A DNA stretch of 64,000 nt from an uncultured Rhodospirillaceae bacterium (GCA_964476835.1 CAYZCE010000008.1:512-64511); one strand, 5' to 3'. Positions 2,320 to 41,997 are shown, counted from the stretch's first letter. The notes: generated from the sequence alone by a model not told the origin. Program-made: numbers and translations.

Positions 2320-2323
2320 TAAT

Positions 2324-8390: not shown

Positions 8391-8465
8391 GCGCGTGTAG
8401 CTCAGTGGTAGAGCACTGCTTTGACATAGCAGGGGTAGAAAGTTCGATCCTTTCCACGCGCACCA
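8391..8465 (+). tRNA. tRNA-Val (anticodon GAC)
   Basis: GCGCGTGTAGCTCAGTGGTAGAGCA...CTGCT-TTGACAT-AGCAG...GGTAGAAAGTTCGATCCTTTCCACGCGCACCA. Cloverleaf-compatible, with encoded CCA. Confidence 0.9.
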
Positions 8466-8476
8466 TCAGCCCCATG

Positions 8477-8509
8477 AAAAAAGCCGGACCCTTGAGGTCC
8501 GGCTTTTTT
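8477..8509. terminator. bidirectional intrinsic terminator (tRNA-Val / hpf)
   Basis: AAAAAA-GCCGGACC-cttga-GGTCCGGC-TTTTTT. An A-tract and a T-tract flank an 8-bp GC stem between the convergent tRNA-Val and hpf. Confidence 0.78.
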
Positions 8510-8526
8510 CATTCCTGAAACACCGC

Positions 8527-9102: not shown

Positions 9103-9180
9103 GTTGTTGTCCTTGAATTTGATGAAGAAAGTACCACCCTTAATATTGTAGGCGGGTCGTCTTAAAATAGCGTTAACGCC

Positions 9181-10644: not shown

Positions 10645-10709
10645 CCCTGAACTCCCTATACTCCTTATATCACAGACGCGCCGGCGCGCGGAGATTTTAA
10701 AGAGAAGAT

Positions 10710-13148: not shown

Positions 13149-13206
13149 CTCCCAGGTTGCGGCTTTACAGTTGCAGATGCACCCGCCCCCGTCAAGCGCC
13201 GGAGAC

Positions 13207-14660: not shown

Positions 14661-14827
14661 CATTGCCAAGACCCCCATCTTGCAGAACCCACACAGATTC
14701 TCTCATTACCCGGGCAGAGGGTCAAGACTATCTGCTTGTTTTTCAATATGATTTTGATGCTTTACGGCAGGGGAGTATTCTGATAAATATTTGTCCTAAT
14801 CTGAACATTTTCAAGAAAGTATATCTC

Positions 14828-16651: not shown

Positions 16652-16675
16652 AAAGCTTCCGAAATAGAGCTTGAG

Positions 16676-16718
16676 CGGGGATCGTCTGCAATCGTAGACT
16701 ATCCCCGTTCTTCTTTTT
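16676..16718 (+). terminator. rho-independent terminator after acyl-CoA ligase 1
   Basis: CGGGGATCGTCT...AGACTATCCCCG forms a 12-bp stem with one mismatch, followed by TTCTTCTTTTT. Confidence 0.6.
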
Positions 16719-16728
16719 CGGGGGTTGC

Positions 16729-17733: not shown

Positions 17734-17814
17734 CGTATTGCCGCCATGGTTGACTCAAGGGCAGGCGGGGGCATATTTTGTTATGCCCTGTCGCTATTAT
17801 AAGGTCTCGCCGCT

Positions 17815-18924
17815 TTGAACAACGCCGCTTCACAACAATCCGCCCCGCTCCTCAAGACGCCGCTCTGGGCGTTGCACCGGGAACTGGGCGGCAAGATGGT
17901 GCCCTTCGCGGGCTACGACATGCCCGTGCAGTATGACGGCATGGGCGTGCTGAAGGAACACCTGCACACCCGCGCCGCCGCCGGCCTCTTCGACGTTTCG
18001 CACATGGGGCAGGCGATCCTCTCCGGCGACGTCGACGCGCTCGAGGCGTTGGTGCCTTCCGACATCCGCGGTCTCGTGCCTGGTCAGATGCGCTACACGC
18101 ACTTGTTGAATGACCAAGGCGGCATCATTGACGACCTGATCGTCACGCGCCGCGATGCGCAAACTTTGTTCATCGTCGTCAACGCCGCCTGCAAGGATGG
18201 CGACTTTGCTCATATCCGTGCGAAACTAGCGGGCAAGGCCGAGCTAAAAATCCGCGATGACCGCGCGCTCATCGCGGTGCAGGGCCCTGCGGCGGAAAAA
18301 GTCGTCGCCGCGCATTTCCCGGCGGCGGCAGCGCTCGGCTTCATGACGTCGCTGGTGGAAGGCGACGTCTTCGTGTCGCGCTGCGGCTATACCGGTGAAG
18401 ACGGTTTTGAAATCTCCATCCCCGCCGCGCGCGCGGAAGAATTCGCGCGCATCCTGATGAAGCACGACGATGCAAAGTGGATCGGTCTCGGCGCGCGCGA
18501 CAGCTTGCGCCTTGAAGCCGGCCTGTGCCTTTACGGCCACGATATCGACACGGCCACCACGCCGGTCGAGGCCAACCTGAAGTGGATCATTCCCAAACGC
18601 CGCCGCGCCGACGGCGGCTTCCCGGGTGCGAATAAGATCATCGCACAAATCACGGACGGCGCACCGCGCCTGCGCATCGGCCTGCAGCCGGAAGGCCGCG
18701 CCCCCTTGCGCGAAGGCACCGAACTGTTCGCCGGCGGCCGCAAGATCGGCGTCATCACCAGCGGCGGCTTCGGCCCCAGCGTGAACGCGCCGGTGGCGAT
18801 GGGCTACGTCGAAACCGCTTTCGCCGCCGTCGGCACGAAAATCGACGCCATGCTGCGCGGCGAGGCGCGTCCCTGCGCCGTGGCCGCGCTCCCGTTCATT
18901 CCCGCCAAATACAAGAAGGATTAA
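17815..18924 (+). CDS. gcvT: glycine cleavage system aminomethyltransferase T
   Basis: LKTPLWALHRELGGKMVPFAGYDMPVQY and CGYTGEDGFEISIP. A TTG start at 17815 is the only in-frame start upstream of the conserved N-terminus, with AAGG 10 nt upstream. Confidence 0.92.
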   Translation: MNNAASQQSAPLLKTPLWALHRELGGKMVPFAGYDMPVQYDGMGVLKEHLHTRAAAGLFDVSHMGQAILSGDVDALEALVPSDIRGLVPGQMRYTHLLNDQGGIIDDLIVTRRDAQTLFIVVNAACKDGDFAHIRAKLAGKAELKIRDDRALIAVQGPAAEKVVAAHFPAAAALGFMTSLVEGDVFVSRCGYTGEDGFEISIPAARAEEFARILMKHDDAKWIGLGARDSLRLEAGLCLYGHDIDTATTPVEANLKWIIPKRRRADGGFPGANKIIAQITDGAPRLRIGLQPEGRAPLREGTELFAGGRKIGVITSGGFGPSVNAPVAMGYVETAFAAVGTKIDAMLRGEARPCAVAALPFIPAKYKKD

Positions 18925-27900: not shown

Positions 27901-27976
27901 CGTAAAGATTTTCCTGCCGAATCTTCCTTGTCAATCTCCGCGCCGGTTTGTCATTCTAATGTGCAGAAGAAACCTC

Positions 27977-30900
27977 ATGAATAAGGATCGCCCCTCCATG
28001 ACCTCCCGTTCAGCACGTGCCATGAAGACGTCACTTCTTGCCGGTGTGGCCTTGATGTGCCTGGTAGCGACGGGAGCCCGCGCGGACAATTTCATCACGG
28101 ACGGCGAAACGGTATCCGCCGACCATATCAATGCCAGCTGGGATATCTACGGCACCGGCTTGCCGGACAATACCGCCAATATCACGATCAACAGCATCGG
28201 CAACACCGTCACGCTCGGCGCGTTCAATTCTTACGCGGCTTTCCAGTTCGACCCCACGCCCGACGCGGATCCGGACCTGATCGGCGCATTGACGGTCATC
28301 GGCGGAAACGCCGTCACCTTCGACGGCTTCATCGACGGCAGCCACGGCGGCATCACGCTGACCTCTGCTGCGACCAACCTGACCTTCCATGACGACATCA
28401 CCAACAACGTCGCCATCACCATCGGGGATGACGCCAATGCGGTCGCCGCTACGTTCATGCTGGCGGACCAATCCATTTCCGGCCTTGCCGGCGGGTACGA
28501 CCTGAACGTTTCCGCCACCATCGATGCCGGCGGCACCGCGCCTGAAAACGCCGCGATCAACGTGGTGAACAACACGGGCAGCTATCACACCGTCATCTTC
28601 AGCAGCGACCTCGGCAGCCAAGGCGCGCTCGGCGCCATCACCGTCGGCGCGGATACCGTGTCGACGGGCGTGGATTTCGGCGGCAACGTCGATGCCACCA
28701 ACATCACGCTCGGCGGATGGAGCACGCAGGGAGATACCAACTTCGCCATCTTCGGCAATGCTGTCGCCGCGCCGACCGTCGTGACGGCGGACATCGACGG
28801 CGCGGAATATGAATCTGCCGTTGACGACATAAGCGAGGAAAATACCGGCGGCAACTGGGTCGGCGTGGAAGGCGGCGCCGATGTCACGTTCACCGGCGCG
28901 ATCGGCAGCAAGATCAGCGCTGTGCTGCTCGGCCTCGGCGGCGACGGCACCGAAGACACAAGCGCGACGTTCACGGACGATGTCGCTACCTCGATCATCC
29001 TCAACACCACCGGAATTTCCGAGAACAACCATTTCGACAGCGACTACGCCACCCCGCCGAACGACAGCCTGACCATCGACGCCACGGGCGGCGACATCAC
29101 CGTCTCCGGCACCATCCTCAATGCCGTTTTCTACAACAACCCTTCGTACAGCACGCCCGAAGAGCTCATGGACAGCCTGACGGGCACCGTCATCCTCACC
29201 GGCGGCACCATCGGCACGCCGCGCGAGATCAACGTCGGCGCGATCGACTTCGTCAATACCCTGAATGTCGGCGATTACACCACGGTGAACCTGGCCGGCG
29301 ATTCTACGTCGCACGACGGCATGGACTGGGAGATGTACAGCAACGACATCTACGGCAACAGCATCCTGCTTCTGAATGTTGCCATGCAGGACCATTCCGT
29401 CATCAACCTGACGACGCCTGGCGGCAGCATCCTTGAAGCCATCGTTTCCTCGACGGGCGGCACGGTGAACGTCGGTGAAGACAGCGCCGCCCTCTTCGAC
29501 GGCGACACCAGCACGGCGGTCAACCTGCAGGGCGCCAACGCCTCGGTCGGTTTCGATTCGTTCCCCGGCAACCCGGCGGTATCGGTGGTGACGAGCGACA
29601 TCGTCTCGTCCATCGCGGACGTATCTGAGCGCGGCCAGACGCGCACCGTTTCTTTCAATGACGTGGATTTTCAAGGCACGCTGTCGTTCGGCGACGCCAA
29701 CGACACGCTGCATATCGAGAACATGACGCTGGACGGGCCGGTCGACCTCGGCTACGGCGCGAACCATGTCGAGCTGGCCAACGGCGGCGCGATCAGCAAC
29801 AGCACGTCCGACCCGGATATCACGTTCGGCTCGGGCACCAGCGTATTGAAACTCACCGCCGCGACCTTCGACGGCGCGGTCGCGCATAGCGGCACCGGCG
29901 GCGTTGTCCTGGACCTGCACGGAGGCTGCCCGACGTCGGATCCTTGCGCGGCGATCGGCGCAGATGCGACATTCGAGGACCTGACCGATGTCGACGTCAC
30001 CGACGACATCTCCGTCGTGCAAGCGGCGCTGGCGCCGGCGAACGGCACCTCGATCACTTCCAGCGGCACGCTGATTATCAACGGCGGATCAGCATCGCTC
30101 GCAGGCGACGTCCGGGGCGACAGCACCGGTACGCTGGCGTTCAGCAACGGCAGCTTCAGCAACCCGGCGTCGGGCGGCGTTTACTCGTCCGTCAGCCTCG
30201 CGCTCGACAACGCGACCTTCACGACGGCGACCGCGACCGACACCGGCATCGATTCCCTCCATGCGATCAGCGTGCTGGACGGCTCCACGTTCAACGTGAA
30301 TGCCGACGTTTCTTCCGCCGACGCGCTGACCGTCGACAATTCGACGGTAAACATCGCCGCCGGAAAGACGCTAGCGGCGGGTTCCATGAACGGCATGACC
30401 GATGGCACGCTCTCCTTCGGCCTCGACGACGACGGCACGGCCGGCCGCCTGACCCTCACCGACGGCGGGATCATCCTGCAGGGCGCGACCGTCAAGATCG
30501 ACCTGACGTCGCCGAGCACGTTCAGCCTGACCACGCCCGTCCTTCTCGCCACCGGCACCGCGACGCTCATCGGCTTCGACGGCAGCGACGGGCAGGCGGC
30601 AACGGAAATCGGGGCGAACACCGCGTTGTGGACGTTCTATGTCGAGGACGGCACCTATGCCGGCGGCGACGACACTCAGCTCTACGTCGTGGCGGAACGC
30701 GACGGCCCTTCGATCGCGGAGGTGGGTGCGGAACATAGCCCCAGCAACGCATCCGTCGGCGCGACATTTGACGGCCTTTCCGCGACCACCGACCCGCAGC
30801 TCCTGGCGATCCTGACGAAGATCAACGCGGCGCCGACCGACGCGGCGATCAACGCGATCCTGTCCTCCGTCAAGCCGACCGGCAACGGCGCGGCGGCGGG

Positions 30901-31834
30901 CACGCTTAACATGATCAACAACGCGCTCAACCTCAACAGCATGCACCTCGACGAAGTGCGCCAGACCGGCCTTTCCGGCGGCACGGCGGTGCGCGGCATG
31001 CAGTTCTGGACGCAGGCCTTCGGCCAGACGGCAAACCAGGGCATGCGCGGCGGCGATGCGGGTTTCGAGGCGGATACGGCGGGCTTTGCGGCCGGCATCG
31101 ATTCCGAGAACCTCGTGAAGAACGCGGTGATCGGCGCGGCCGTCGACTACGGCCACACCAACGTCAACTCCAGCAACGGCAACAGCACCGGCGCCGACAT
31201 CAACAGCTACCAGCTGACGGCCTACGGCGAGTACGACTTCGGCAACAAGACCTACTTCAACGCGCAGGCGTCTTATGCGTTCAACAAGACCGACGTTGTG
31301 CGCTACGACGTCGGCGGCCTCGGCGGCTTGACGGCGCGCGGTAGCTTCGATGCCGACCAATACGCGTTGCGCGCTGAAACCGGCCACAGCTTCCAGGCCG
31401 GCGCGACCACGCTGACGCCCAAGGCGCTGGCGCACTGGGCGCACTACAGCCCCGACGACTACACCGAAACCGGCGCGGGCGGCGCGAGCCTTGCGGTCAA
31501 CCAGAAGTCGATGGACATCTTCGAGCTGGGCGGCGGCCTCGACGCCAGCTGGAAGTTCCGCCGCGACGACGGCGCCGAAGTGGTGCCGGCGATCCGCGCG
31601 GGATACCGCTATGACCTCATCGGCGACAGCGTCGCCTCGACGTCGACCTTCGCGGGCGGCGGCACGGCCTTCAGCACCGAAGGCGCAAGCCCGGCGCGCG
31701 GCACCGCCACGCTCGGCGCAGGCCTCAAGTACGCGCTGCCCAACGCGGTCGACCTGACGCTCAATTACGATTTCGAGCACAAGGCCGACTATAATTCCAA
31801 CTCGGGCTACCTTCGCGTCGGGTACAGCTTTTGA
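27977..31834 (+). CDS. autotransporter outer-membrane protein 1 (large Gly/Thr/Asp/Asn-rich passenger + C-terminal beta-barrel)
   Basis: Signal-like MKTSLLAGVALMCLVATGARA-DN. Passenger of about 950 aa. C-terminal ~280 aa has the autotransporter beta-domain pattern (MQFWTQAFGQ..., alternating hydrophobic strands, terminal YLRVGYSF). Start ambiguous (27977, 27998 or 28022). Confidence 0.85.
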   Translation: MNKDRPSMTSRSARAMKTSLLAGVALMCLVATGARADNFITDGETVSADHINASWDIYGTGLPDNTANITINSIGNTVTLGAFNSYAAFQFDPTPDADPDLIGALTVIGGNAVTFDGFIDGSHGGITLTSAATNLTFHDDITNNVAITIGDDANAVAATFMLADQSISGLAGGYDLNVSATIDAGGTAPENAAINVVNNTGSYHTVIFSSDLGSQGALGAITVGADTVSTGVDFGGNVDATNITLGGWSTQGDTNFAIFGNAVAAPTVVTADIDGAEYESAVDDISEENTGGNWVGVEGGADVTFTGAIGSKISAVLLGLGGDGTEDTSATFTDDVATSIILNTTGISENNHFDSDYATPPNDSLTIDATGGDITVSGTILNAVFYNNPSYSTPEELMDSLTGTVILTGGTIGTPREINVGAIDFVNTLNVGDYTTVNLAGDSTSHDGMDWEMYSNDIYGNSILLLNVAMQDHSVINLTTPGGSILEAIVSSTGGTVNVGEDSAALFDGDTSTAVNLQGANASVGFDSFPGNPAVSVVTSDIVSSIADVSERGQTRTVSFNDVDFQGTLSFGDANDTLHIENMTLDGPVDLGYGANHVELANGGAISNSTSDPDITFGSGTSVLKLTAATFDGAVAHSGTGGVVLDLHGGCPTSDPCAAIGADATFEDLTDVDVTDDISVVQAALAPANGTSITSSGTLIINGGSASLAGDVRGDSTGTLAFSNGSFSNPASGGVYSSVSLALDNATFTTATATDTGIDSLHAISVLDGSTFNVNADVSSADALTVDNSTVNIAAGKTLAAGSMNGMTDGTLSFGLDDDGTAGRLTLTDGGIILQGATVKIDLTSPSTFSLTTPVLLATGTATLIGFDGSDGQAATEIGANTALWTFYVEDGTYAGGDDTQLYVVAERDGPSIAEVGAEHSPSNASVGATFDGLSATTDPQLLAILTKINAAPTDAAINAILSSVKPTGNGAAAGTLNMINNALNLNSMHLDEVRQTGLSGGTAVRGMQFWTQAFGQTANQGMRGGDAGFEADTAGFAAGIDSENLVKNAVIGAAVDYGHTNVNSSNGNSTGADINSYQLTAYGEYDFGNKTYFNAQASYAFNKTDVVRYDVGGLGGLTARGSFDADQYALRAETGHSFQAGATTLTPKALAHWAHYSPDDYTETGAGGASLAVNQKSMDIFELGGGLDASWKFRRDDGAEVVPAIRAGYRYDLIGDSVASTSTFAGGGTAFSTEGASPARGTATLGAGLKYALPNAVDLTLNYDFEHKADYNSNSGYLRVGYSF

Positions 31835-31878
31835 CGGAAAAAAGGCATCAGCGGGCGCCGAACGCCTATCTCCAGGAC

Positions 31879-33225
31879 ATGCGCGGCGATGCGGCGGAGG
31901 TCGCGTGGCCAGCGTTGCTGACCTCGGCGCGTGCCTCTCTCGTTGCGCTGCTGTACCAGATGGAAGACACGCAATGGCTGCCGGCGGATGTCTTCGTCCA
32001 GAACCAGATGCGGCAGGTCGGCAAGCTGGTGGCGCATGCCGCCACGCAGTCGCCATTCTTCCGCCAGCGGCTTGAAAAGGCCGGGCTGAAGCCGGAAGAC
32101 CTCGCGACGCCGGAAGGTTTCCGTCGCCTGCCGCCGATGACGCGCCGCGACATCCAGGATGCGCAAGAGACGCTCTTCTGCGCTTCATCGCCGCCGACGC
32201 ATATGCCGGCCTGGGAGGCGACGACCTCCGGCTCGACGGGCGAGAAGGTGAAGGTCCGCAAGACCCAGCTAAGCAGCCTTTATTGGGTCGCGCTGACATT
32301 GCGCGGGCATTTCTGGTATGCGCGCGACATGAAGAAGCGGCTGATGGCCGTGCGCGACGGCATCCCCGAGGTGCAGAACGCGCCGGACTGGGGCTTCCCG
32401 ATCAGCCAGCTGTTCGACAGCGGGCCGATGCGCATCGTGCCGGGCTGGACGCCCGCGCCGGAATACGAGCGCCATATCCGCGATTTCCGTCCGCACTACC
32501 TGATCGCCTACCCGAGCGTGCTCGCCGCCATCATGGAAGAAAGCCGGCGCAAGAATATGCCGATCGAGGGCGTCGAGCACGTCATGACGATCGGCGAGCG
32601 CCTGTCGCCCGAACAGGCACAGGATATCGCGGCCTTCTTCAACGCGCGCGTCATCGACGTTTATTCTTCCACCGAGACGGGAAACACGGCGGTGCAATGT
32701 CCGGAAAGCGGGCTGTATCACGTGATGGGCGAAAGCGTGCTGCTTGAGATCCTCGACGACAAGGGCAACCCTTGCGCAGCCGGCGAAGTCGGGAAAGTCG
32801 TCATGACGGACCTGAGCAATTACGCGACGCCGATGATCCGCTATGCGATCGGCGACTATGCCGAAGCGGGCGGCGCCTGCTCTTGCGGGCGCGCGCTGCC
32901 GACGGTCAAGCGCTTCCTCGGGCGCGAACGCAACCTCGCACTGCGCCCGGACGGCACCAAATACTGGCCGGTCATCGGCGCCGTCATGTTCCACGAAGTC
33001 GCATCCGAGGTCCGGCAGGCGCAGTTCGTCCAGCTTGACCGCAACACGCTGGAAGTGCGGCTCTCCACCGATGCGCCCGTCGCCCCGGCACAGGAGGAAC
33101 GCTTCCGGGAGATGATATATAAGGCGCTCGGTTGCCGTTATACCGTTAATTTCGTTTATTTTTCCGACCGCCTGCCGGCGTCGTCGAACGGCAAGTTCGA
33201 CGATTTTATTTGCCAAGCGAGCTAG
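31879..33225 (+). CDS. adenylate-forming enzyme of the phenylacetate-CoA ligase / coenzyme F390 synthetase (PaaK/CapK-like) family
   Basis: Motifs TTSGSTGEKV (A3), VYSSTETG (A5), IRYAIGDY (A8) and SSNGKFDDF (A10 Lys). ATG 31879 has AGGA just upstream. An alternative TTG at 31831 would overlap the autotransporter stop by 4 nt. Confidence 0.8.
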   Translation: MRGDAAEVAWPALLTSARASLVALLYQMEDTQWLPADVFVQNQMRQVGKLVAHAATQSPFFRQRLEKAGLKPEDLATPEGFRRLPPMTRRDIQDAQETLFCASSPPTHMPAWEATTSGSTGEKVKVRKTQLSSLYWVALTLRGHFWYARDMKKRLMAVRDGIPEVQNAPDWGFPISQLFDSGPMRIVPGWTPAPEYERHIRDFRPHYLIAYPSVLAAIMEESRRKNMPIEGVEHVMTIGERLSPEQAQDIAAFFNARVIDVYSSTETGNTAVQCPESGLYHVMGESVLLEILDDKGNPCAAGEVGKVVMTDLSNYATPMIRYAIGDYAEAGGACSCGRALPTVKRFLGRERNLALRPDGTKYWPVIGAVMFHEVASEVRQAQFVQLDRNTLEVRLSTDAPVAPAQEERFREMIYKALGCRYTVNFVYFSDRLPASSNGKFDDFICQAS

Positions 33226-33320
33226 AGTTTCGTAAAAAGGCGCCTCTCAAAAAAGCCCCCCTCGGCTAGAATCAGGCTGACTGATTTGTGACGAATAATA
33301 ACAACGAAAAAGTAACGCAC

Positions 33321-35711
33321 ATGATGTCACCCTTTCTCCGCAAAGCCCTTTTCGCAGGCTCGGCCCTTGTCGCCTTGGGCGCGGCAGTGCCCGCGCAGGC
33401 TTCGACGCAAATCGTCAACGGCAGCGACATCGTCGTCAACAGCGACCCTAACGCGACGCCCGCGATCGAGTTCCAGTCGGACAACATCGCCACCATCAAC
33501 GGCGGCGTCAACATCACGGGCACCATCGTCGCGGATGCGCCGTCCACCGGCATCCTCCGCTTCCTCGGCTCTACCATCGTCGAAGGCGACGTCGGCAGCG
33601 CGACCAATGCGCTGAACCGCATCGACCTCTTCACCCAGATCGAGTTCAAGGGTGTGGTCTATACCGATGGCTTCGCAGGCCCCTTGGATGATGCGGAAGT
33701 CACCTTCGACCAAGACGTCTATGCCCTGTTGAACGGCCTCAACTTCGGCACCAGCCCGACGTCGGGCACCGTCAACCTCGCCGACGGCGTGACGTTCCAT
33801 GGCGATATCGTCAACACCGTCTCGTCCGAAGGCGGGCAGAGCGGCGGCATCCTGACCTTGTGGGGCGACGGCGTAGTGACCGGCATCGTCGGCGGCGGCC
33901 CCGGCAGGCCGCTCGACACCATCAACGCCGGCGTTGACGGGTCTTCGTCGACGTTTGAAAACACAGTCATGACGGCCACGGCGAACATCACCGGCGACGG
34001 CACGGTGACCTTCGACCAAAGCGTCGAGACGTCCGGCGTCAACTTCCTCGCCAACGGCACGGTCGTGCTCACCTACGGCTATAGCCTGAGCGGCCCCGAA
34101 GGCGGCAACACCCTAATGGTCGGCGCAGAAGCGGCGCCGCCGGGCGGCGGACATGGCAACGTCCTCATCCAGGGCGGCGACAATGGCACTTTCAATTTGC
34201 ACAGCAGCCTCGGCGGCCTCAACTCCCTGACGCTGGACGGCACGGGCAATACGACGACGGTCACCGGCAACGTCAATTCGATCAACGCCATCTACCTCGG
34301 CACCAACAGCCTCGTCATCAACGGCGGTTTCACCGAAGCGGCGGGTGATGCGATTTACGCGACGATCACGGGCGAAGTGGGCAGCACGCTGACCGGCGGC
34401 AACATCACCGTCGCCGGATCTGAGGGCGGCGGCACCGTGAACCTCGACATCTCGCCGTCGACGGCCGTCTACCTCGCCAACAACAGCCCCAGCGTCCACG
34501 CGGGCGACGTCTATACGCTTGTGACCTGCGCCACCGCCTGCAGCGCGGCGATCGGCACCGGCATCACGCCGGTCTCGCCGGGGCTTTCGTTCACGCAAGT
34601 CACCTCGGACCCGAACGTGCTGGCCTTCACGGTCAGCGCCGTCACGCCTGCGGGCGGCCTCAGCAATGCGCCCTTGTTCTACATGGCCGACCTGCCGCTC
34701 GAGGTGCTCGACGTGACGAGCGACGAATTGATGGCCGTGCGCGACGGCAACCCGGCGGTGGCCAGCGCGATGACTGGCATGTCCGCCGGTTACGCCGCGC
34801 CCAACGTCATCTACTTCAGCATGCCGTCGGGTTACAGGACCATCGGCGACCGGGACGGCAAGTCGCCCGTCGTCAACACCACCAACGCATGGATGCAGGC
34901 CTACGGCCAGCTGACGACGCAGGACACGCATGACGGCTATGCCGGCTATCACGCGATCGCGCGCGGCATGAGCGCCGGCGTGGACACGATTTCCCTGATC
35001 AAGGACACCATCGTCGGCATCGCGGCGAACTTCATTTCCGCCGACCTCAAGTCGAAGAACAACGAGAAGGCCGAAGTCGAGAGCCGCGGCATCATCGTCT
35101 ACGGCGGCCATGAACTGCCCTACAACCTCTTCACGCGCGCGCAGGCGGGTTATTCCTACAACACGGTCACGACGAAACGCTACAATTCCGACGGCGTCGG
35201 CGGCGAGTCCGACGGCAACTACGGCGCGGACCAATACTACGCGAAAGCCCTCGTCGGGCGCGATTACGTGACGAACAACGGCACGATCCTGACGCCCAAC
35301 GTCGTCGCCGACTATATCGGCCTGCACACGCAGGATTACACCGAGACCGGCTCGAGCCTGAGCAACCTGTCGATCGCCAGCGAGACCTTCAGCCAGTTGC
35401 GCGCCGGGCCCGGCCTCGACATGGCGTGGCGCATGCAGAACGCGAACGGCGGCGTCTTCCAGCCGTTGCTGCGCGTGCTCTACCAATACGACATCCTCGG
35501 CAACCGCCAGAGCACGGCCGCGACACCGGTGGGCGGCGGCGGCGCCATCATCGCCGACGGGCCGTCTCCCGCGCGCAACATCATCCGCCTCGGCGCGCAG
35601 GCGACGTACATGACGGTCGCGGGCTGGGATATTTCCGCCCGCTACGACTTCACGTACAAGACGGACTATCACGCCAACGACGGACTGCTGCGCGCGACCC
35701 TGCACTTCTGA
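33321..35711 (+). CDS. autotransporter outer-membrane protein 2 (paralog of 27977..31834)
   Basis: MMSPFLRKALFAGSALVALGAAVPAQA-STQ signal. Gly/Thr/Asn-rich passenger. Beta-domain begins around NAWMQAYGQ and ends LLRATLHF. Start at 33321/33324, or GTG at 33288. Confidence 0.85.
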   Translation: MMSPFLRKALFAGSALVALGAAVPAQASTQIVNGSDIVVNSDPNATPAIEFQSDNIATINGGVNITGTIVADAPSTGILRFLGSTIVEGDVGSATNALNRIDLFTQIEFKGVVYTDGFAGPLDDAEVTFDQDVYALLNGLNFGTSPTSGTVNLADGVTFHGDIVNTVSSEGGQSGGILTLWGDGVVTGIVGGGPGRPLDTINAGVDGSSSTFENTVMTATANITGDGTVTFDQSVETSGVNFLANGTVVLTYGYSLSGPEGGNTLMVGAEAAPPGGGHGNVLIQGGDNGTFNLHSSLGGLNSLTLDGTGNTTTVTGNVNSINAIYLGTNSLVINGGFTEAAGDAIYATITGEVGSTLTGGNITVAGSEGGGTVNLDISPSTAVYLANNSPSVHAGDVYTLVTCATACSAAIGTGITPVSPGLSFTQVTSDPNVLAFTVSAVTPAGGLSNAPLFYMADLPLEVLDVTSDELMAVRDGNPAVASAMTGMSAGYAAPNVIYFSMPSGYRTIGDRDGKSPVVNTTNAWMQAYGQLTTQDTHDGYAGYHAIARGMSAGVDTISLIKDTIVGIAANFISADLKSKNNEKAEVESRGIIVYGGHELPYNLFTRAQAGYSYNTVTTKRYNSDGVGGESDGNYGADQYYAKALVGRDYVTNNGTILTPNVVADYIGLHTQDYTETGSSLSNLSIASETFSQLRAGPGLDMAWRMQNANGGVFQPLLRVLYQYDILGNRQSTAATPVGGGGAIIADGPSPARNIIRLGAQATYMTVAGWDISARYDFTYKTDYHANDGLLRATLHF

Positions 35712-35800
35712 TTTTTTCATAAGCATAGGCTGAAAAAACCGCTGTATTTGCAGGCGTTCCCGGGTTATTTTTGTCGTAACCTCAATTTTACCGGGCGACC

Positions 35801-36412
35801 ATGTCTGTCACACTGCACCAGGGCGATCTTCCTGCGGGAATTTCATTCGGCGACGTCGTCGCCGTCGATACCGAAATGATGGGGCTGCGCCCCGCGCGCG
35901 ACCGCCTCTGCCTCGTGCAGTTGTCGGCGGGCGACGGCAGCGCGCATATCGTGCAGCTGAAGAAGGGTGACTATGCCGCGCCGAACCTGCGCAAGCTGCT
36001 GACCGACCCGAGTGTGACCAAGCTCTTCCACTTCGCGCGTTCCGACATCGCGTCCATCTACGCATGGCTCGGCGTCCTCTGCGCGCCGGTCTATTGCACC
36101 AAGCTGGCGTCGCGCCTGGCGCGCACCTATACGCAGCACCATTCGCTCAAGACCGTCTGCTCTGAACTGCTCGGCGTCGAACTCGACAAGCAGCAGCAGG
36201 CGACCAACTGGGGCGCGGAGACGCTGACGCCGGAGCAGGTGGCCTACGCCGCTTCCGACGTGCTCTACCTGCACCGCATCAAGGAAAAGCTCGACGCCAT
36301 GCTGGCGCAGGAAAGCCGCCGCGCGCTGGCGGATGAATGTTTCCGCTTCCTGCCCGCGCGCGCGTTGCTCGACCTTGCCGGCTGGGACAACGAAGACATT
36401 TTCGCGCATTGA
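35801..36412 (+). CDS. ribonuclease D-like DEDD 3'-5' exonuclease (short form)
   Basis: 203 aa. ExoI VAVDTEMMGL, ExoII KLFHFARSDI and ExoIII QVAYAASDVLYLHRI. Confidence 0.87.
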   Translation: MSVTLHQGDLPAGISFGDVVAVDTEMMGLRPARDRLCLVQLSAGDGSAHIVQLKKGDYAAPNLRKLLTDPSVTKLFHFARSDIASIYAWLGVLCAPVYCTKLASRLARTYTQHHSLKTVCSELLGVELDKQQQATNWGAETLTPEQVAYAASDVLYLHRIKEKLDAMLAQESRRALADECFRFLPARALLDLAGWDNEDIFAH

Positions 36413-37194
36413 TGGAAACGCAGGACAACAGCAGCGCGCAGAACCTTCCGGCCCTTGCGCCCGTGTTCAACGATGCGGCGCAGGCCGCCCTGCGCCTTGC
36501 CGCGCAAGACGAAAACATCGCGCATATCGCCGCCATCCTGAAGCAATATCCCGGCGCGGCCGCCACCTATACGGCGCAGCAGGTGCTGATGGAATCCATC
36601 GAGGAATGCAAGGTCGCCGTCGCCCTCGCGCTGCTGGACGGCGGCGTCAGTCCCGACGACAGCCGCCGCAAGGGCGAGACGCCGCTGACCTTGGCCGTGC
36701 AATGCGGCTTGCCGGAAGTCGTCGAAAAAATCCTCGACATGGGCGGCGACGTGAACAAGGCGAATACCGACGGCTGCACGCCGTTCCTGCTTGCGGTATG
36801 GAAGGACAATTTGGCTGTCGCCCGCCAGCTGCACGCCCGCGGCGCCAATATCGACCGCCCCAACAGCAACGGGGAGACATCGCTGATCCTGGCGATCGCC
36901 CACAACTATGAAACGGCGGCGCGCTTCCTGCTCGCCGCGGGCGCCGATATCGCGCCGGTCGACCATGACGGCGTCTCGGCCCGTTCGGAGGCGAGAAAAT
37001 ATCTGGAGAAGCCTGAGGGCGATCTCTATATCCGCCTGCTCGACATCAGCGTGGAAGACCGCCGCCGCGCCGCCGAAGCCGCCATCGAGGCGGAGAAGTG
37101 CGCCATCAGCGAAAACACCCTGGGGCGGTTGCAGCAATGTGCCGGGGGTGGGGCAGCATTCCGCCGGAAATCTCCGCCGCCGGGACCGCAATAG
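36412..37194 (+). CDS. ankyrin repeat protein 1 (260 aa)
   Basis: The ATG overlaps the stop of the upstream exonuclease gene (TGATG). ANK repeats such as KGETPLTLAVQCGLPEVVEKILDMGGDVNKANTDGCTPFLLAV and NGETSLILAIAHNYETAARFLLAAGADI. The tail is AAFRRKSPPPGPQ. Confidence 0.85.
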   Translation: METQDNSSAQNLPALAPVFNDAAQAALRLAAQDENIAHIAAILKQYPGAAATYTAQQVLMESIEECKVAVALALLDGGVSPDDSRRKGETPLTLAVQCGLPEVVEKILDMGGDVNKANTDGCTPFLLAVWKDNLAVARQLHARGANIDRPNSNGETSLILAIAHNYETAARFLLAAGADIAPVDHDGVSARSEARKYLEKPEGDLYIRLLDISVEDRRRAAEAAIEAEKCAISENTLGRLQQCAGGGAAFRRKSPPPGPQ

Positions 37195-37330
37195 GCTTTA
37201 TTTTTCATAATTTATAACTTTTTGCGATAAAATCCTGAATCCAGCTGTTTCGGCGCCCAGAAAAGACTGTCCATAACCACGGGGACGGCTTATTATTTCC
37301 CGATCAGAATCAAGGAAAAGCGAAATTTTC

Positions 37331-38098
37331 ATGACCGCGAAGAACGGCAAGAAAAAGAAGAAGCCCGCGCCGCGCAAGAAGCCGTCCGCGCCCGCGAAGG
37401 ATGACGGCAAGAAGAAGCCGAAGGCCGCATCGCCCTCCTTCAACAAGAAGGCCAAGACCCCCAAGCCGGGGCCGTCGCCGGAAGACATCAGCGACCTCAT
37501 GTCCTCGGTCGTCGCCGGCGTCAAGGATGAGGTTGTCGCCTTCGTCAAGAAATTCCCCGGTTTCGTCGATGTCAAGAGCGACGCTGACGAAACCACGGCG
37601 CTTTACAACGCCGCCTTCTGGGGCCAGGAAGAGATCGTGGCCGTCCTGCTGAAGGCGGGCGCCAAGCCCGACCTGCCCTGCACCAGCGGCGCCACGCCGA
37701 CACTGCGCGCGGCCGAGCGCGGGCATGAGGCGTCGCTTGAGCTGCTGCTCCGCGCCGGCGCCAATCCAAACCTGCAGGATGAAGACGGCGATACGGCGCT
37801 GTCGGCCGCGGCATACAGGAACGAACCGTCGTGCGCGCGCATGCTGATCGACTACAATGCCGACGTCACCATCGCCAATAACGACGGCAATACCGCGCTC
37901 GACATCGCGCGCGAGTACGAGCGCGATGCATTCACCGAACTTTTCGAGGCTGCCGCCGCCCGTCAGCAGGAAGCCCGCGCCAAGGCCGAAGAGCAGCGCA
38001 AGACCGACGCCAGCGCGAGCGCCATCGACCGCCTGAAGACCAACGCGCCCGCACCGCGCAGCGTGTTCGGCAAGAAGAACAAGCCGCCCAAGCCATGA
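37331..38098 (+). CDS. ankyrin repeat protein 2 with Lys/Pro-rich N-terminus (255 aa)
   Basis: N-terminus MTAKNGKKKKKPAPRKKPSAPAKDDGKKKPKAASPSFNKKAKTPKPGP. ANK repeats (SGATPTLRAAERGHEASLELLLRAGANPN, DGDTALSAAA, DGNTALDIA). The tail is SVFGKKNKPPKP. Confidence 0.88.
   Translation: MTAKNGKKKKKPAPRKKPSAPAKDDGKKKPKAASPSFNKKAKTPKPGPSPEDISDLMSSVVAGVKDEVVAFVKKFPGFVDVKSDADETTALYNAAFWGQEEIVAVLLKAGAKPDLPCTSGATPTLRAAERGHEASLELLLRAGANPNLQDEDGDTALSAAAYRNEPSCARMLIDYNADVTIANNDGNTALDIAREYERDAFTELFEAAAARQQEARAKAEEQRKTDASASAIDRLKTNAPAPRSVFGKKNKPPKP
38058..38093 (+). repeat. 36-nt exact direct repeat, copy 1 (3' end of ankyrin gene 2)
   Basis: GCAGCGTGTTCGGCAAGAAGAACAAGCCGCCCAAGC is identical to 38729-38764. 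It encodes SVFGKKNKPPK. Confidence 0.95.
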
Positions 38099-38769
38099 AC
38101 CTTTCCCCCCTCGCGCAACAGCAGCCGGAAGAGACCGACATCAGCCTCTTCATGACCGCCGTCATCGATGGCGACGCGGTGCGCATCAAGGGTTTCCTCG
38201 AGCGTTTCTTCGGCCTCGCCAATACGGCGAATCCCGAGAACGGCATCACGGCCCTGTGCTATGCCGCCGGCGACGGGCGCGACGACATCGTGGAAATCCT
38301 GCTGGAAGCGGGGGCCGATGTCGACCTGCCGTCGTTCGGCGTGCTCGCGGGTGATACGCCGTGGGCGGACGGCGCCACGCCGCTCATGAAGGCGGTGGAA
38401 TTCGGCCGCGTGAGCACGGCGATCCTGCTGTTCGGCGCCGGCGCGAAGGTCGACCGCCAGAGCCGCAGCGGCTACACCGCGCTGATGGTGTCGGTCGAGC
38501 GTTTCAATCCCGAGATGAGCGCCCTTGTGCTCTCCTACAAGCCCAACACGGCGTTGACCAACAATAAGGGCCATTCCGCGCTTGATCTTGCGCGCATTGC
38601 GGCGGAAGCCCGCCTCCAATTCGCGGCGCAGCTCGGCGGCGATATCGGGCGCGTGGAAAAAGAGCGCGCCGCCGAAGGGGTCAGCGATATCTCCCTCGGC
38701 AAGCTGCGGGTAAAATCCATCAAGCCGGGCAGCGTGTTCGGCAAGAAGAACAAGCCGCCCAAGCTGTAA
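38095..38769 (+). CDS. ankyrin repeat protein 3 (224 aa)
   Basis: ATGA overlap with the preceding gene. ANK repeats (NGITALCYAAGDGRDDIVEILLEAGADVD, DGATPLMKAVEFG, SGYTALMVSV, KGHSALDLA). The tail is SVFGKKNKPPKL. Confidence 0.88.
   Translation: MNLSPLAQQQPEETDISLFMTAVIDGDAVRIKGFLERFFGLANTANPENGITALCYAAGDGRDDIVEILLEAGADVDLPSFGVLAGDTPWADGATPLMKAVEFGRVSTAILLFGAGAKVDRQSRSGYTALMVSVERFNPEMSALVLSYKPNTALTNNKGHSALDLARIAAEARLQFAAQLGGDIGRVEKERAAEGVSDISLGKLRVKSIKPGSVFGKKNKPPKL
38729..38764 (+). repeat. 36-nt exact direct repeat, copy 2 (3' end of ankyrin gene 3)
   Basis: Identical to 38058-38093. The flanking sequence on both sides differs. Confidence 0.95.
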
Positions 38770-38787
38770 TATCCAAGGAAGGAACAT

Positions 38788-39807
38788 ATGACTATGACCA
38801 TTTCCAAGCTCCCGCAAAAACCGGCTTCCGCGACGGCCAATGCCGACCTCGCCATCGCCACGCGCGTGCTGCAGACCGAGGCGGCGGCGCTGCTGAAGCT
38901 GTCGCAGTTCATCGACAACAGCTTCCTGCAGGCGGTCGAGATGATCGAGGCCGCCGAAGGCCGCGTCATCGTCACCGGCATGGGCAAGAGCGGCCATATC
39001 GCGCGCAAGATGGCCTCGACCTTCGCGTCCACCGGCACGCCCGCCTTCTTCGTGCACCCGGCCGAGACCAGCCACGGCGACCTCGGCATGATCGTGCGCG
39101 GCGACATCGTGCTGGCGATCTCCAACTCGGGCGAAGCCAAGGAGCTCAACGACCTCATCGAATACACGCGCCGTTCCGCCATCCCGCTGATCGGCGTCAC
39201 CAGCCGCGCGCAATCGACGCTGGCCACCCGCGCTGACATCACGCTGCTGCTGCCCGATTGCCCGGAAGCCTGCCCGAACGGCCTTGCGCCGACCACCTCG
39301 ACCACGCTGGCATTGGCGCTGGGCGATGCGCTGGCGGTCACGCTGCTCGAGAAGAAGGGCTTCACGGCCAAGGATTTCAAGGTCTATCACCCGGGCGGCA
39401 AGCTCGGCCAGCAACTGACCAAGGTGGCCGAGATCATGCACGGCGGCCAGAACCTGCCGGTGGCGCCTGAAACGATTTCCGTGTCGGAAGCGGTGCAGAT
39501 CATCACCGACAAGGGTTTCGGCTGCGTATGCCTGACCGACGCGATGGGCCGCCTGACCGGCATCGTCACCGACGGCGACCTGCGCCGCAAGCTCTCCGAC
39601 GACCTGCTGCGCAAGTCCGCGCATGAAGTCATGACGCGCGACCCGCGCGCCGTGTCGCCGGACACGCTCGTGGCCGAAGCGATGGCGATCATGAACGATA
39701 TCAAGGGGTCGTTCCGCAAGATCACCGTGCTGCCGGTCAAGGACGCGGACGGCAAGCCCGTCGGCCTTCTGCACATCCACGACTGCCTGCGCGCCGGCTT
39801 CGCCTGA
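38788..39807 (+). CDS. kdsD: arabinose-5-phosphate isomerase (KpsF/GutQ/KdsD family; SIS + tandem CBS)
   Basis: GRVIVTGMGKSGHIARKMASTFASTGTPAFFVHPAE..HGDLGM (SIS domain), then two CBS modules. RBS AAGGAAGGA upstream. Confidence 0.93.
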   Translation: MTMTISKLPQKPASATANADLAIATRVLQTEAAALLKLSQFIDNSFLQAVEMIEAAEGRVIVTGMGKSGHIARKMASTFASTGTPAFFVHPAETSHGDLGMIVRGDIVLAISNSGEAKELNDLIEYTRRSAIPLIGVTSRAQSTLATRADITLLLPDCPEACPNGLAPTTSTTLALALGDALAVTLLEKKGFTAKDFKVYHPGGKLGQQLTKVAEIMHGGQNLPVAPETISVSEAVQIITDKGFGCVCLTDAMGRLTGIVTDGDLRRKLSDDLLRKSAHEVMTRDPRAVSPDTLVAEAMAIMNDIKGSFRKITVLPVKDADGKPVGLLHIHDCLRAGFA

Positions 39808-39818
39808 TCGGCCGTACG

Positions 39819-40457
39819 ATGACCGATCACCGCCGTTTTGACGCCTATGTGCCGCGCCGGTTAAGCGCGTTCGGGCGCGGCTATTCGGTTTTCGTCCGCG
39901 TGCTGAAATACGTGCTGCCGCTGGTGGCGCTGGTCATCATAGGCATCCTGTTTGCGCGGCTTTCCGGCGAGCATGCGCAGAACGCTTCGACAATGGCGCA
40001 AGGCGAAAAGACCACGCCCGGCCAGATCGAGCTGGTCGGCGCGAAGTACGAAGGCGTCGACGACCAAGGCCACCCTTATACGGTCACCGCCGACCGCGCC
40101 GTGCGCGACATGAGCAATGCCGAGAGCATGCGCTTCGAGAACCCGGTCGCCGACATCACGCTCACCGACGGCACGTGGCTGGCGGTCAAGAGCCGCTCCG
40201 GCTTTTTCGACCGCACCAATGAGACGCTGCAGCTCGACGGCGGCGTCACGGTCTTTCATGACGGCGGCTATGAAATGACGCTCGAGGACATTAACATCAA
40301 TTTGCGCGACCGCACGGCATCGAGCGAAAAGCCGGTCTCCGCGCAAGGCCCGCTCGGCACGATCGCCGCACAGAACATGACGGTGAGCGACCAGGGCTTT
40401 CTGATCACGTTCGGCGGCCCGGCGGTAATGAAGATTTTCGTGAAGGCGAGGGGATGA
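39819..40457 (+). CDS. lptC: LPS export system protein LptC
   Basis: 212 aa, single N-terminal TM (LKYVLPLVALVIIGILFA) plus a beta-jellyroll-like periplasmic domain. Sits between kdsD and lptA. Confidence 0.8.
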   Translation: MTDHRRFDAYVPRRLSAFGRGYSVFVRVLKYVLPLVALVIIGILFARLSGEHAQNASTMAQGEKTTPGQIELVGAKYEGVDDQGHPYTVTADRAVRDMSNAESMRFENPVADITLTDGTWLAVKSRSGFFDRTNETLQLDGGVTVFHDGGYEMTLEDININLRDRTASSEKPVSAQGPLGTIAAQNMTVSDQGFLITFGGPAVMKIFVKARG

Positions 40458-41227
40458 TGAAGAAGTTTTTGGCGATCGCGCTCATGTTCGTATGTACGTC
40501 CGCTTTTGCGGCCGAACAGGCGCCGGTCGAGATATCCGCCGACAAGTCGCTCGAGTGGAACCGCCGCGACAAGACCTATACCGCGCGCGGCAACGTCGCT
40601 GCCAAGCAGGGCGAAGCTGTCGTCAAAAGCGACCTGCTCGTCGCGCGCTACAACGACGCCAACGGCGGCACAGACATTTCCACCCTGACGGCTACCGGCC
40701 ATGTGACGGTGCAGTCGCCGCCCTATACGGCCTACGGCGACCGTGCCGTCTACGACGTGCCCACCGGCAATGCGACCCTGACGGGCAATAACCTGAAGGC
40801 CGTCAGCACGGAAGACACGCTGACCGCGCGCGACAAGATCGAGTTCGTCGGCAAGGAAGACCGCCTGAATGCTGTCGGCGGCGCCACGGTGACGCATGGC
40901 ACTTACGTGGTGACGGCGGACACGATGAGCGCCTGGTTCATCGCCGACGCCACCGGGAAGAAAACCGCGAAGAAGGTGACGGCGAACGGCCAGGTGACGA
41001 TCAAGACCGCCAACGAGACGGTGGTTGGCGATGAAGGCGTCTATGATTTGACGACCGGAAAAGCCGTATTGACGGGCAAAGTCAAGGCGCATCAGGGCGA
41101 CAGCTGGCTGGAAGGCACGCGCGCCGATGTTGACATGAAGACCGGAATAAGCCAACTTTCAGGAGGCGGCAATGCCGATACCGGCGGCCGCGTGAAGGGT
41201 GTCTTTTATCCCAAGAGCAAGCAGTAA
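40454..41227 (+). CDS. lptA: LPS transport periplasmic protein LptA (OstA-like)
   Basis: Signal MMKKFLAIALMFVCTSAFA-AEQ. OstA_N-type repeats (ISADKSLEWNRRDKTYTARGNV...). ATGA overlap with lptC. Confidence 0.86.
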   Translation: MMKKFLAIALMFVCTSAFAAEQAPVEISADKSLEWNRRDKTYTARGNVAAKQGEAVVKSDLLVARYNDANGGTDISTLTATGHVTVQSPPYTAYGDRAVYDVPTGNATLTGNNLKAVSTEDTLTARDKIEFVGKEDRLNAVGGATVTHGTYVVTADTMSAWFIADATGKKTAKKVTANGQVTIKTANETVVGDEGVYDLTTGKAVLTGKVKAHQGDSWLEGTRADVDMKTGISQLSGGGNADTGGRVKGVFYPKSKQ

Positions 41228-41997
41228 TGACGACTGAGAAAAAACCGATGGAACCGCACCTCGTCTCCTCCAACCCGCAAGGGCTGGTGGTCGACCACCT
41301 GATGAAGCGCTACAAGCGCCGTCCGGTGCTGCGCGACGTGTCGCTGAACGTCAAGCGCGGCGAAGCGGTCGGCCTGCTCGGCCCCAACGGCGCGGGCAAG
41401 ACGACGTGCTTTTATATCGTGACTGGCCTCATCGAGGCGGACAGCGGCACGATCTCGCTCGACGGCCGCGACATCACGCGCCTGCCGATGTACCGCCGCG
41501 CGCGCATGGGCATCAGCTACTTGCCGCAGGAATCCTCGATCTTCCGCGGCCTCAACGTCGAAGACAACATCCGCGCCGTGCTGCAGGTGGTCGAGGAAGA
41601 CCCGCAGCGCCGCGAGCACATGCTGGAAGAGCTGCTGGCCGAATTCTCGATCAGCCACCTGCGCCAGACGCCGTCGGTGGCGTTGTCGGGCGGCGAGCGC
41701 CGCCGCGTGGAAATCGCGCGCGCGCTGGCGACGCATCCGCACTTCATCCTGCTCGACGAGCCGCTGGCCGGCATCGATCCGATCGCGGTCGCCGACATCC
41801 GCGACCTCGTCAAGCATCTCAAGACGCGCAACATCGGCGTGCTCATCACCGACCACAACGTGCGCGATACGCTCGACATCGTCGACCGCGCCTATATCCT
41901 GCACGGCGGCCAGGTGCTGATGGAAGGCAAGCCGGCGGATATCGTCTCGCACAAGGACGTGCGCCGCGTCTATCTCGGCGAGAAGTTCAGTCTGTAA
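41227..41997 (+). CDS. lptB: LPS export ABC transporter ATP-binding protein LptB
   Basis: Walker A GPNGAGKTT, signature LSGGERRRVEIARAL and Walker B FILLDEP. Confidence 0.95.
   Translation: MTTEKKPMEPHLVSSNPQGLVVDHLMKRYKRRPVLRDVSLNVKRGEAVGLLGPNGAGKTTCFYIVTGLIEADSGTISLDGRDITRLPMYRRARMGISYLPQESSIFRGLNVEDNIRAVLQVVEEDPQRREHMLEELLAEFSISHLRQTPSVALSGGERRRVEIARALATHPHFILLDEPLAGIDPIAVADIRDLVKHLKTRNIGVLITDHNVRDTLDIVDRAYILHGGQVLMEGKPADIVSHKDVRRVYLGEKFSL

Follow-up and report, generated by a model that had tools for sequence, protein, structure and literature searches.

Why should three adjacent genes for ankyrin-repeat (Ank) proteins, all ending in a related basic, proline-rich tail, stand between an exonuclease gene and the genes for lipopolysaccharide (LPS) export, and what might such a tail be for? 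The locus lies in 64,000 nt of DNA (63% GC) from an uncultured Rhodospirillaceae bacterium (GCA_964476835.1 CAYZCE010000008.1:512-64511), the whole of which we refer to as the window. Most work on bacterial Ank proteins concerns effectors of intracellular pathogens and symbionts. In the present case a compact C-terminal tag, under selection, marks Ank arrays in GC-rich contigs, and the flagellar and housekeeping genes of the window are those expected of a free-living bacterium. We are highly confident of the descriptive part of the answer, namely that a tandem set of Ank genes has been inserted at this junction, that the proteins share a disordered tail under selection, and that such arrays recur elsewhere; our view of what the tail does is more guarded.

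The three genes, ank1 (36412..37194, 260 aa), ank2 (37331..38098, 255 aa) and ank3 (38095..38769, 224 aa), are on the plus strand and encode members of the ankyrin superfamily, scoring above the gathering thresholds of both Pfam Ank_2 and Pfam Ank (for Ank_2, with a cut-off of 27.3 bits, the scores are 63.4 bits, E 3e-17, for ank1; 77.2 bits, E 1.5e-21, for ank2; and 56.2 bits, E 5.4e-15, for ank3). The first-pass annotation had described them as consecutive plus-strand Ank genes without signal peptides, and the coordinates, overlaps and Pfam matches all check out; the profile scores are well above gathering, and the predicted structure of ank3 has four Ank helix pairs. The ATG of ank1 has one base in common with the stop codon of the rnd-like gene (TGATG), with an alternative in-frame ATG possible at 36337; ank2 and ank3 overlap by ATGA, and the ank3 stop lies 18 nt 5′ of the kdsD start (38788). 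The ank2 and ank3 products are full-length paralogues (34% identity, E 1e-33) and ank1 is a more distant one, with 27–30% identity to the other two; the tails are collinear in the alignment. By a heuristic check (Kyte-Doolittle hydropathy over 19 residues) none of the three has a signal peptide or transmembrane segment, the maximum being at most 1.23 with no N-terminal hydrophobic core, and they thus appear to fall outside the class of Sec/Tat-exported or membrane-anchored Ank proteins.

The AlphaFold2 model of ank3, the sole window protein modelled, has a mean pLDDT of 82.7 and consists of four helix-pair repeats, a long helix at residues 162–193 and a tail (residues 201–224) predicted to be disordered, with pLDDT below 50; ank1 and ank2 have the Ank domain and tail in common with ank3 by sequence. 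A Foldseek search of this model against the PDB returned only DARPins and generic Ank proteins. Generic proteins of four to five repeats, such as DARPins and ankyrin-R/B, have the same fold over the central ~160 residues (Foldseek E ~1e-10, TM ~0.8 on the target), and PDB sequence matches to ank2 are likewise confined to residues ~56–211; by contrast, the C-terminal linker, the tail and an N-terminal extension of ank2 have no match in the PDB.

The tails read AAFRRKSPPPGPQ in ank1 (37153..37191, plus strand), RSVFGKKNKPPKP in ank2 (38057..38095, plus strand), followed by the stop that overlaps the ank3 start, and GSVFGKKNKPPKL in ank3 (38728..38766, plus strand). All three fit the strict motif F-[GR]-[KR]-K-x-x-P-P-x-[PL], and a six-frame scan of the whole window finds it solely at these C-termini, so that the related tail first proposed from inspection of the genes is confirmed and is unique to them in the window. 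We also scored the tails with a 12-position profile, anchored at the protein end and trained on non-window tails alone, against a control set of 229 generic Ank proteins and the 49 other proteins of the window. The ank1 tail scores 5.3 bits (3 of the 229 Ank controls are as high), ank2 15.2 bits (0/229) and ank3 9.1 bits (1/229); the window tails thereby outrank 226–229 of the 229 generic Ank proteins, and the best of the 49 other window proteins reaches 3.5 bits.

Tail-like sequence also occurs at the other end of ank2, where a Lys/Pro-rich extension of about 47 aa (37331..37471, plus strand) contains three degenerate units of the form G-K-K-x-K-P. At the DNA level these belong to a repeat family, D1, with copies at 37344–37373 and 37404–37433 that are 70–80% identical to the tail-coding DNA, and BLASTP pairs the extension segment SPSFNKKAKTPK with SVFGKKNKPPK. 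Read as protein, the N-terminus (KKKKKPAPRKKP...GKKKPK...FNKKAKTPKP) gives the tail unit three times, and fits the simple nuclear-localisation patterns of S4TE.

The tail-coding DNA of ank2 and ank3 includes an exact 36-nt repeat on the plus strand (38058..38093 = 38729..38764), present in two copies and in none of the shuffled sequences. All 11 codons common to these two tails are identical, for which P is ~0.003 given window codon usage and ~0.014 given the 68% same-codon rate elsewhere in the pair. As the proteins are only 34% identical, the simplest reading is a recent gene conversion; more broadly, the identity suggests either gene conversion or a constraint at the nucleotide level.

Insertion at the rnd-kdsD junction

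The upstream border of the triad is an rnd-like 3′-5′ exonuclease gene (35801..36412, plus strand, 203 aa; Pfam DNA_pol_A_exo1, E 2.7e-41), and the downstream border is kdsD (38788..39807, plus strand), with an SIS domain (E 4.2e-29) and two CBS domains (E 4.7e-21). The co-directional string continues with lptC, lptA and lptB (39819..41997, plus strand), identified by tblastn to relatives, with open reading frames that overlap or are 11 nt apart. We compared this region across 80 loci from a KdsD scan (one genome per species), 20 of which have rnd 5′ of kdsD on the same strand. The gap between the two genes is at most 269 nt in 18 of these 20 loci, and 2375 nt in the window. The window rnd is 57–67% identical to the rnd abutting kdsD in most relatives (45% in the two loci L003 and L058), and the ancestral block is rnd-kdsD-lptC-lptA-lptB-rpoN-hpf. 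The closest relative, a metagenome-assembled genome (L001, WGNE01000021; KdsD 69% and LptB 88% identical to those of the window), has a junction of 1839 nt, with an esterase gene and a single minus-strand Ank gene whose product, of 191 aa and without a signal peptide, ends in PLKVGKPLKVKPRRP. In the other loci of the 80 there is no Ank gene within 10 kb of kdsD.

From this comparison the triad is a lineage-specific insertion, a tandemly duplicated set, into a junction that was ancestrally contiguous. Because both the window and its closest relative carry tail-bearing Ank genes here, differing in number, strand and sequence, the junction is a variable spot specific to this lineage. The first-pass annotation had placed the triad outside any obvious island, a view that the comparison of relatives does not sustain, since with rnd abutting kdsD in 18 of 20 loci the triad is an insertion, although its codon composition is native: the third-position GC of ank1–3 (0.78–0.86) resembles that elsewhere in the window, and they are therefore not recently acquired foreign genes. 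Signs of a mobile element (flanking repeats, a tRNA or an integrase) were not seen around the triad. Two other occupants of this junction may be recorded: in L001 the esterase (8166–9041), beside the Ank gene, is a secreted protein resembling polyhydroxyalkanoate depolymerases, and in a distant relative (L078, 1292–1966) the junction holds a non-Ank open reading frame of 224 aa, which suggests that it tolerates insertions repeatedly.

The insertion bears on how the LPS-export genes are transcribed. Between ank1 and ank2 lies an AT-rich spacer (37195..37330, plus strand, 136 nt, 39% GC) with the only promoter-like site of the region, a sigma-70-like site at 37204–37233 that is the sole one within 35600–39000. 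The DNA 5′ of kdsD in relatives is not homologous to this spacer, which also lacks an Rfam match, and Rfam gave no credible match anywhere in 35000–40000. No plus-strand terminator is predicted in 35600–39000, an interval that ends just past the kdsD start, and this spacer aside the genes overlap or are separated by at most 18 nt, so that co-transcription of the triad with kdsD-lptCAB, as originally supposed, remains plausible. The 18 nt between ank3 and kdsD leave no room for a kdsD promoter 3′ of ank3, and we infer that transcription of kdsD-lptCAB starts within or 5′ of the Ank genes, barring a promoter inside the ank3 coding sequence. The locus shows that a conserved LPS-export operon can absorb foreign genes, and expression of the essential lptCAB genes probably now relies on promoters that the insertion contains.

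Related arrays and the conservation of the tail

No orthologues of the window Ank proteins were found among 5.8 billion protein clusters; the search with ank2 gave generic Ank matches with at most 70% query coverage. One of these generic matches, P0066, ends in KLKPLPRKPPKP and is encoded by the last gene of a co-directional Ank triad between accD and pyrF, and in its six orthologues (55–59% identity) a C-terminus of the form ...KIVVPKPDKxIKLKPKPPKP is nearly invariant. Related arrays are found in three contigs: L258 (GCA_025934695.1) has two triads, at the accD/pyrF and ridA/nrd junctions, with 4-nt overlaps throughout; L259, from a forest metagenome, has arrays of two and four genes; and L261, also from a metagenome, has a lone Ank gene between accD and pyrF together with the beginning of a second array. 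These arrays thus comprise one to four co-directional genes, mostly with 4-nt stop/start overlaps, in contigs of 62–63% GC whose gene content (NDUFA12; an HPr kinase-RapZ-EIIA-HPr cluster) we take to be typical of alphaproteobacteria. All of the array proteins lack a signal peptide, and each has a tail of the same kind. Directly 3′ of one array in L259 (3272–3820) is a gene for a 182-aa HExxH protein with a sub-threshold match to the DUF6782 metallopeptidases, absent from that place in L258 and L261.

Individual array positions can be matched between contigs, with identities of 58% for A1, 73–75% for A3, 50–56% for B1, 48% for B2 and 43% for B3. Because the flanking accD, ridA and pyrF products are 78–92% identical and the Ank orthologues 43–75%, the Ank bodies evidently diverge much faster than their neighbours. 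The tails are composed of hydrophobic residues, a Lys/Arg cluster and prolines, usually with a Pro at the end, and carry a net charge of +3 to +7 over the last 25 residues, beside V/F/L/I; in the array proteins they follow the pattern hydrophobic-x-hydrophobic-[KR]-[KRP], then a few residues and usually a final Pro. In the set used for counting (22 array proteins) the core motif is present in 19, compared with 5 of the 229 generic Ank controls. The three window tails do not fit the regular expression for this core exactly, and they are included in a looser class (net charge at least +3 and at least two Pro in the last eight residues) to which 17/22 array proteins and 5/229 controls belong. In both AlphaFold2 models the tail is extended and of low confidence (pLDDT 42–58).

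The substitutions among orthologues argue that it is the protein sequence of the tail that is maintained. For the A3 orthologues the ratios of synonymous to nonsynonymous changes are 16:5, 14:4 and 12:6 in the tails (the last 34 codons) and 40:52, 68:56 and 57:57 in the bodies, and because of this synonymous excess the tail is constrained at the protein level, with purifying selection acting on it more strongly than on the Ank body. Conservation of the tail in orthologues, on which its standing as more than a chance resemblance depended, is thus borne out, as it is kept in the six P0066 orthologues and is under purifying selection in the A3 orthologues. Taken with its recurrence in independent Ank arrays, this makes the tail a conserved, selected trait and not a product of chance.

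None of the array positions in the three contigs is orthologous to a gene of the window triad, whose closest pair is ank2 and ank3 themselves. The family we propose, Ank proteins encoded in arrays and tagged at the C-terminus with a basic/Pro sequence, is defined by the lack of a signal peptide, three to six Ank repeats, a helical linker, a disordered high-scoring tail, and co-directional arrays with overlaps; the window triad has these features, and its Ank domains are not specifically closer to those of the family. Because the related arrays stand at accD/pyrF and ridA/nrd, the association of the triad with LPS export looks positional rather than functional.

One generic control, P0041, was alone in scoring at the level of ank3, and its 26-kb contig (L263; Logan ERR3484139, 63.7% GC) proves to contain 16 consecutive genes (1–18908), 14 with Pfam Ank matches and the other two with Ank-like N-termini. 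The net charge over the last 25 residues is at least +4 in 10 of the 16 proteins, and this gene expansion resembles an effector repertoire. Many of the L263 tails are Arg/Lys/Pro sequences, for example KRLRRRKPPRLDPK and ...RRRLKPGGPNP.

Broader searches were less informative. A profile of the 45–53-aa tail gave no match at E ≤10 against 5.8 billion sequences, as short K/P motifs cannot reach significance in a collection of that size; a whole-library HMM search with the family profile was swamped by giant multi-repeat Ank proteins; an alignment-based locus search picked up the generic LLxAGAD Ank pattern and led to giant-virus and phage Ank genes; and tblastn against plasmids gave generic Ank matches only. 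Scanning metagenome DNA for FGKKxKPPK gave 99 matches, nearly all chance or out of frame, and no Ank genes. The real C-termini among them (L210 5862–7514, L205, L172, L232) are mainly AsmA-like (MGLFGKKKKPPK) and Bacteroidota MCE/MlaD-like, where the match is near the end (FSVFGKKDKPPK); both are envelope lipid-transport families. Literature searches returned no description of arrayed Ank genes with such a tail. The initial impression that no described family fits ank1–3 therefore stands, with generic database matches only and no NCBIfam or PADLOC model satisfied, and the triad appears to be an undescribed variant of bacterial Ank proteins.

Possible roles of the tail

A binding domain that diversifies, a constant motif that is disordered and selected, and arrays that vary in copy number together suggest the logic of an address tag. 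The Ank domain would be the variable, target-binding part and the tail a constant address read by one common partner; the likeliest reader would be an export or translocation machine with specificity for C-terminal signals, in the style of a type IV coupling protein, and the Ank proteins would then act as effector-like binders delivered to other cells, such as eukaryotic grazers. That a fast-diverging Ank binding module is joined to a constant tail, most likely a translocation signal, is the reading we tentatively favour, as possible rather than probable. Its fuller form, in which the tail is an unrecognised C-terminal translocation tag and free-living, soil-type alphaproteobacteria deliver fast-diversifying Ank binders to grazers or competitors, is speculative and on balance doubtful.

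Basic, unstructured C-terminal signals on proteins without a Sec signal are a hallmark of type IV substrates. Features 9–11 of S4TE, which describe effectors of alphaproteobacterial type IV secretion systems (T4SS), comprise at least three H/R/K residues and a charge of at least +2 in the C-terminal 25 residues and a hydrophilic C-terminus, and the same scheme includes a eukaryote-like domain (PMC3814349). All 16 of the family proteins tested have the eukaryote-like domain, the H/R/K residues and the charge. For ank1, ank2 and ank3 the C-terminal 25 residues include 4, 7 and 8 basic ones and carry +3, +5 and +7, and their hydropathy is negative.

Several observations weigh against delivery by such a tag. 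The S4TE charge criteria are also passed by 14 of the 49 other window proteins (29%) and by 73 of the 229 generic Ank proteins (32%). The Agrobacterium-type consensus for substrates, which we take to be R-x7-R-x-R-x-R near the C-terminus, is matched by none of the three window proteins, even with K allowed for R. The genes annotated in the 64-kb window include no component of a T4SS, or of a type I (T1SS) or type VI (T6SS) secretion system, so that the absence of a visible secretion apparatus there, as noted at the outset, is upheld. The window gives the impression of a free-living bacterium with flagella, and the one related sample with a readable name is from a forest. Apparently obligatory co-transcription of ank2-ank3 with lptCAB suggests constitutive, not host-induced, expression, and the overlap of stops with starts may mean that the proteins are made in fixed proportion, something that secreted effectors do not require. 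The tag is absent from the non-Ank genes of the sampled loci. Finally, the Ank domains of the window cannot be shown to resemble those of the other arrays more than they resemble generic Ank proteins, and the link of the window to the arrays consequently rests on the tail and on gene organisation.

Comparison with known systems shows both likenesses and differences. The Ank effectors of alphaproteobacterial VirB/D4 (type IVA) systems, such as Anaplasma AnkA, resemble the window proteins in having an Ank domain, no Sec signal and a positive, hydrophilic C-terminus (PMC3814349). However, the window proteins are small (224–260 aa) and come from translationally coupled arrays in a free-living-looking segment with no T4SS in its 64 kb, and their tail, rather than a diffuse Arg-rich signal, is a specific motif of Lys and Pro with Pro as its last residue, and does not contain R-x7-R-x-R-x-R. 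The Dot/Icm Ank effectors of Legionella and Coxiella (NCBIfam T4SS_AnkG, AnkH, AnkY and others) are alike in their Ank repeats and in the logic of a C-terminal signal, but the window proteins have no E-block and belong to another taxon; against the Dot/Icm Ank equivalogs NF043021-NF043029 scores are 16–69 bits, on the Ank portion only, with cut-offs of 500–1400 (the best window score is 49.3 bits for T4SS_AnkY, cut-off 600, and P0066 reaches 68.7 bits). Small Ank proteins with an N-terminal export signal or anchor, some of which interact with eukaryotes, presumably include Pseudomonas AnkB, Bdellovibrio Bd3460 and the ANKp proteins of sponge symbionts and phages; the window proteins differ from these in having no N-terminal signal and a C-terminal tag instead. 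The PADLOC defence models (MzaA, PDC-M72A, 'Ankyrin') match only over the Ank part (residues 199–375 of 392 for PDC-M72A), with no partner genes adjacent.

A type I secretion signal was also considered. The type I Ank substrates of Orientia and Ehrlichia form multi-copy families with an uncleaved C-terminal signal, their last 60 residues are rich in L, D, A, V, T, S, I and F (LDAVTSIF; reported range 37–63%), and they have an acidic pI (isoelectric point) or acidic C-terminus and are low in K, H, P, M, W and C (PMC4315096). The window proteins, with 45–50% LDAVTSIF, lie within that range, but the pI of their last 60 residues is 6.7, 9.8 and 10.4 (ank1, ank2 and ank3) and KHPMWC residues make up 15–20%. 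With basic, K- and P-rich C-termini, a type I signal is unlikely. We similarly set aside an encapsulin cargo-loading peptide (the SLGKL/TLGRL segment), as there is no shell gene nearby and the segment is ~20 residues from the end. The SH3 class I ligand pattern ([KR]xxPxxP) and the classical nuclear-localisation signal are fitted by some tails and not by others (for example L258 A1), and such fits carry little weight because K/P-rich sequence satisfies these patterns easily.

The tail might instead act inside the cell, its hydrophobic and polybasic residues tethering a cytoplasmic Ank scaffold to the inner face of the inner membrane or to nucleic acid. This is the strongest of the alternatives, and we regard it as unlikely without dismissing it. 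It would accommodate the lack of a signal peptide and of any secretion system in view in the window, the net charge of +3 to +7 next to V/F/L/I, the probable constitutive co-transcription with lptCAB, and the three GKKxKP units added by the ank2 N-terminus, in the manner of histone-H1-like or polybasic multivalent binders; the exact FGKKxKPPK, moreover, is found at the C-terminus only in AsmA-like proteins and near it in MCE/MlaD-like proteins, although these matches come from a scan returning mostly chance ones. Polybasic tails that bind membrane or DNA, however, usually keep their character and not their sequence, whereas in this family the last residue is retained along with the prolines, and no other part of the orthologues is as well conserved as the tail; an Ank body that diverges fast and changes in copy number is also more in keeping with genes of conflict or host interaction than with a housekeeping scaffold. 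Were it correct, it would suggest that bacteria use Ank proteins as scaffolds within their own cells, a subject hardly explored so far.

Extended peptides containing Pro are common ligands of Ank grooves, and the tail could accordingly dock in the groove of its own protein or of a neighbouring member, with coupled synthesis giving hetero-oligomers or chains. The 4-nt stop/start overlaps within arrays are in keeping with this, as is the retention by each of the position-specific orthologues (A1, A3, B1, B2 and B3) of its own tail variant. Single genes nevertheless exist (at accD-pyrF in L261 and at rnd-kdsD in L001), and the AlphaFold2 monomer models leave the tail undocked (pLDDT 42–58), so that we consider docking between siblings improbable.

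Tandem, copy-variable arrays of small, fast-diverging cytoplasmic proteins would also be expected of orphan immunity genes, in which a variable array of Ank proteins protects against the polymorphic toxins of competitors; Ank-type immunity proteins are known in polymorphic-toxin systems, and the HExxH protein 3′ of one L259 array could be cited in support. Yet that gene is present in one of three genomes and its DUF6782 match is below threshold, and no toxin, Rhs, CdiA or T6SS gene stands beside the triad or the arrays of L258 and L261, the neighbours being rnd and kdsD in the window and accD, pyrF, ridA and nrd in those two contigs. As immunity would moreover leave the conserved C-terminal tag unexplained, we think it quite improbable.

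C-terminal Pro and polyproline stall ribosomes, and a basic, Pro-rich nascent chain might slow elongation or termination and so tune translational coupling, the mature tail having no role. In most array genes the last codon is indeed one for Pro, and the TGA after it overlaps the start (ATG or GTG) of the next gene; the ank1 tail contains PPP/PPG and those of ank2 and ank3 KPPK, and the 36 nt identical between ank2 and ank3 lie exactly at the gene ends. Against this, the last genes of arrays (L258 A3 and B3) retain the tail with no coupled gene to follow, PP is absent from many family tails, and conservation spans 20–30 residues, hydrophobic positions included; such an element is very improbable. 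Equally so, and already disfavoured, is an absence of any function, with the similarity left by common descent and gene conversion in low-complexity K/P sequence, for while the 36-nt identity of ank2 and ank3 points to recent conversion, purifying selection in independent orthologues, where synonymous changes are many, is stronger on the tail than on the body, and the tail recurs across ~30%-identical paralogues and unrelated loci.

If the tail is a delivery signal, as we tentatively prefer, it would define a new substrate class and offer a simple sequence handle for effectors in environmental genomes; as a translocation tag it would imply effector-style warfare with eukaryote-like proteins, encoded in the housekeeping chromosome of bacteria that are neither pathogens nor symbionts. 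Whichever role applies, the tail is a short, easily tested sequence and gives a handle on a widespread, poorly understood class of bacterial proteins.

Neighbouring genes

Rearrangement is also evident beyond the triad. The kdsD-lptCAB-rpoN-hpf genes are contiguous in L001 and at least 10 other relatives, a near-universal linkage that is broken in the window, where rpoN and hpf (8527–10716, minus strand) lie ~31 kb from lptB (41227–41997, plus strand) and flagellar genes now stand 3′ of lptB; a single inversion of ~10.7–42.0 kb would explain the displacement. Just 5′ of rnd are two large autotransporter genes (27959–31834 and 33288–35711, plus strand) on either side of a gene for an AMP-binding enzyme (31831–33225). 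A second eukaryote-like repeat protein, of 444 aa, is encoded near the start of the window (2264–3598, plus strand); it contains Sel1 repeats (Pfam Sel1, E 2.6e-64) and has an N-terminus resembling a signal peptide.

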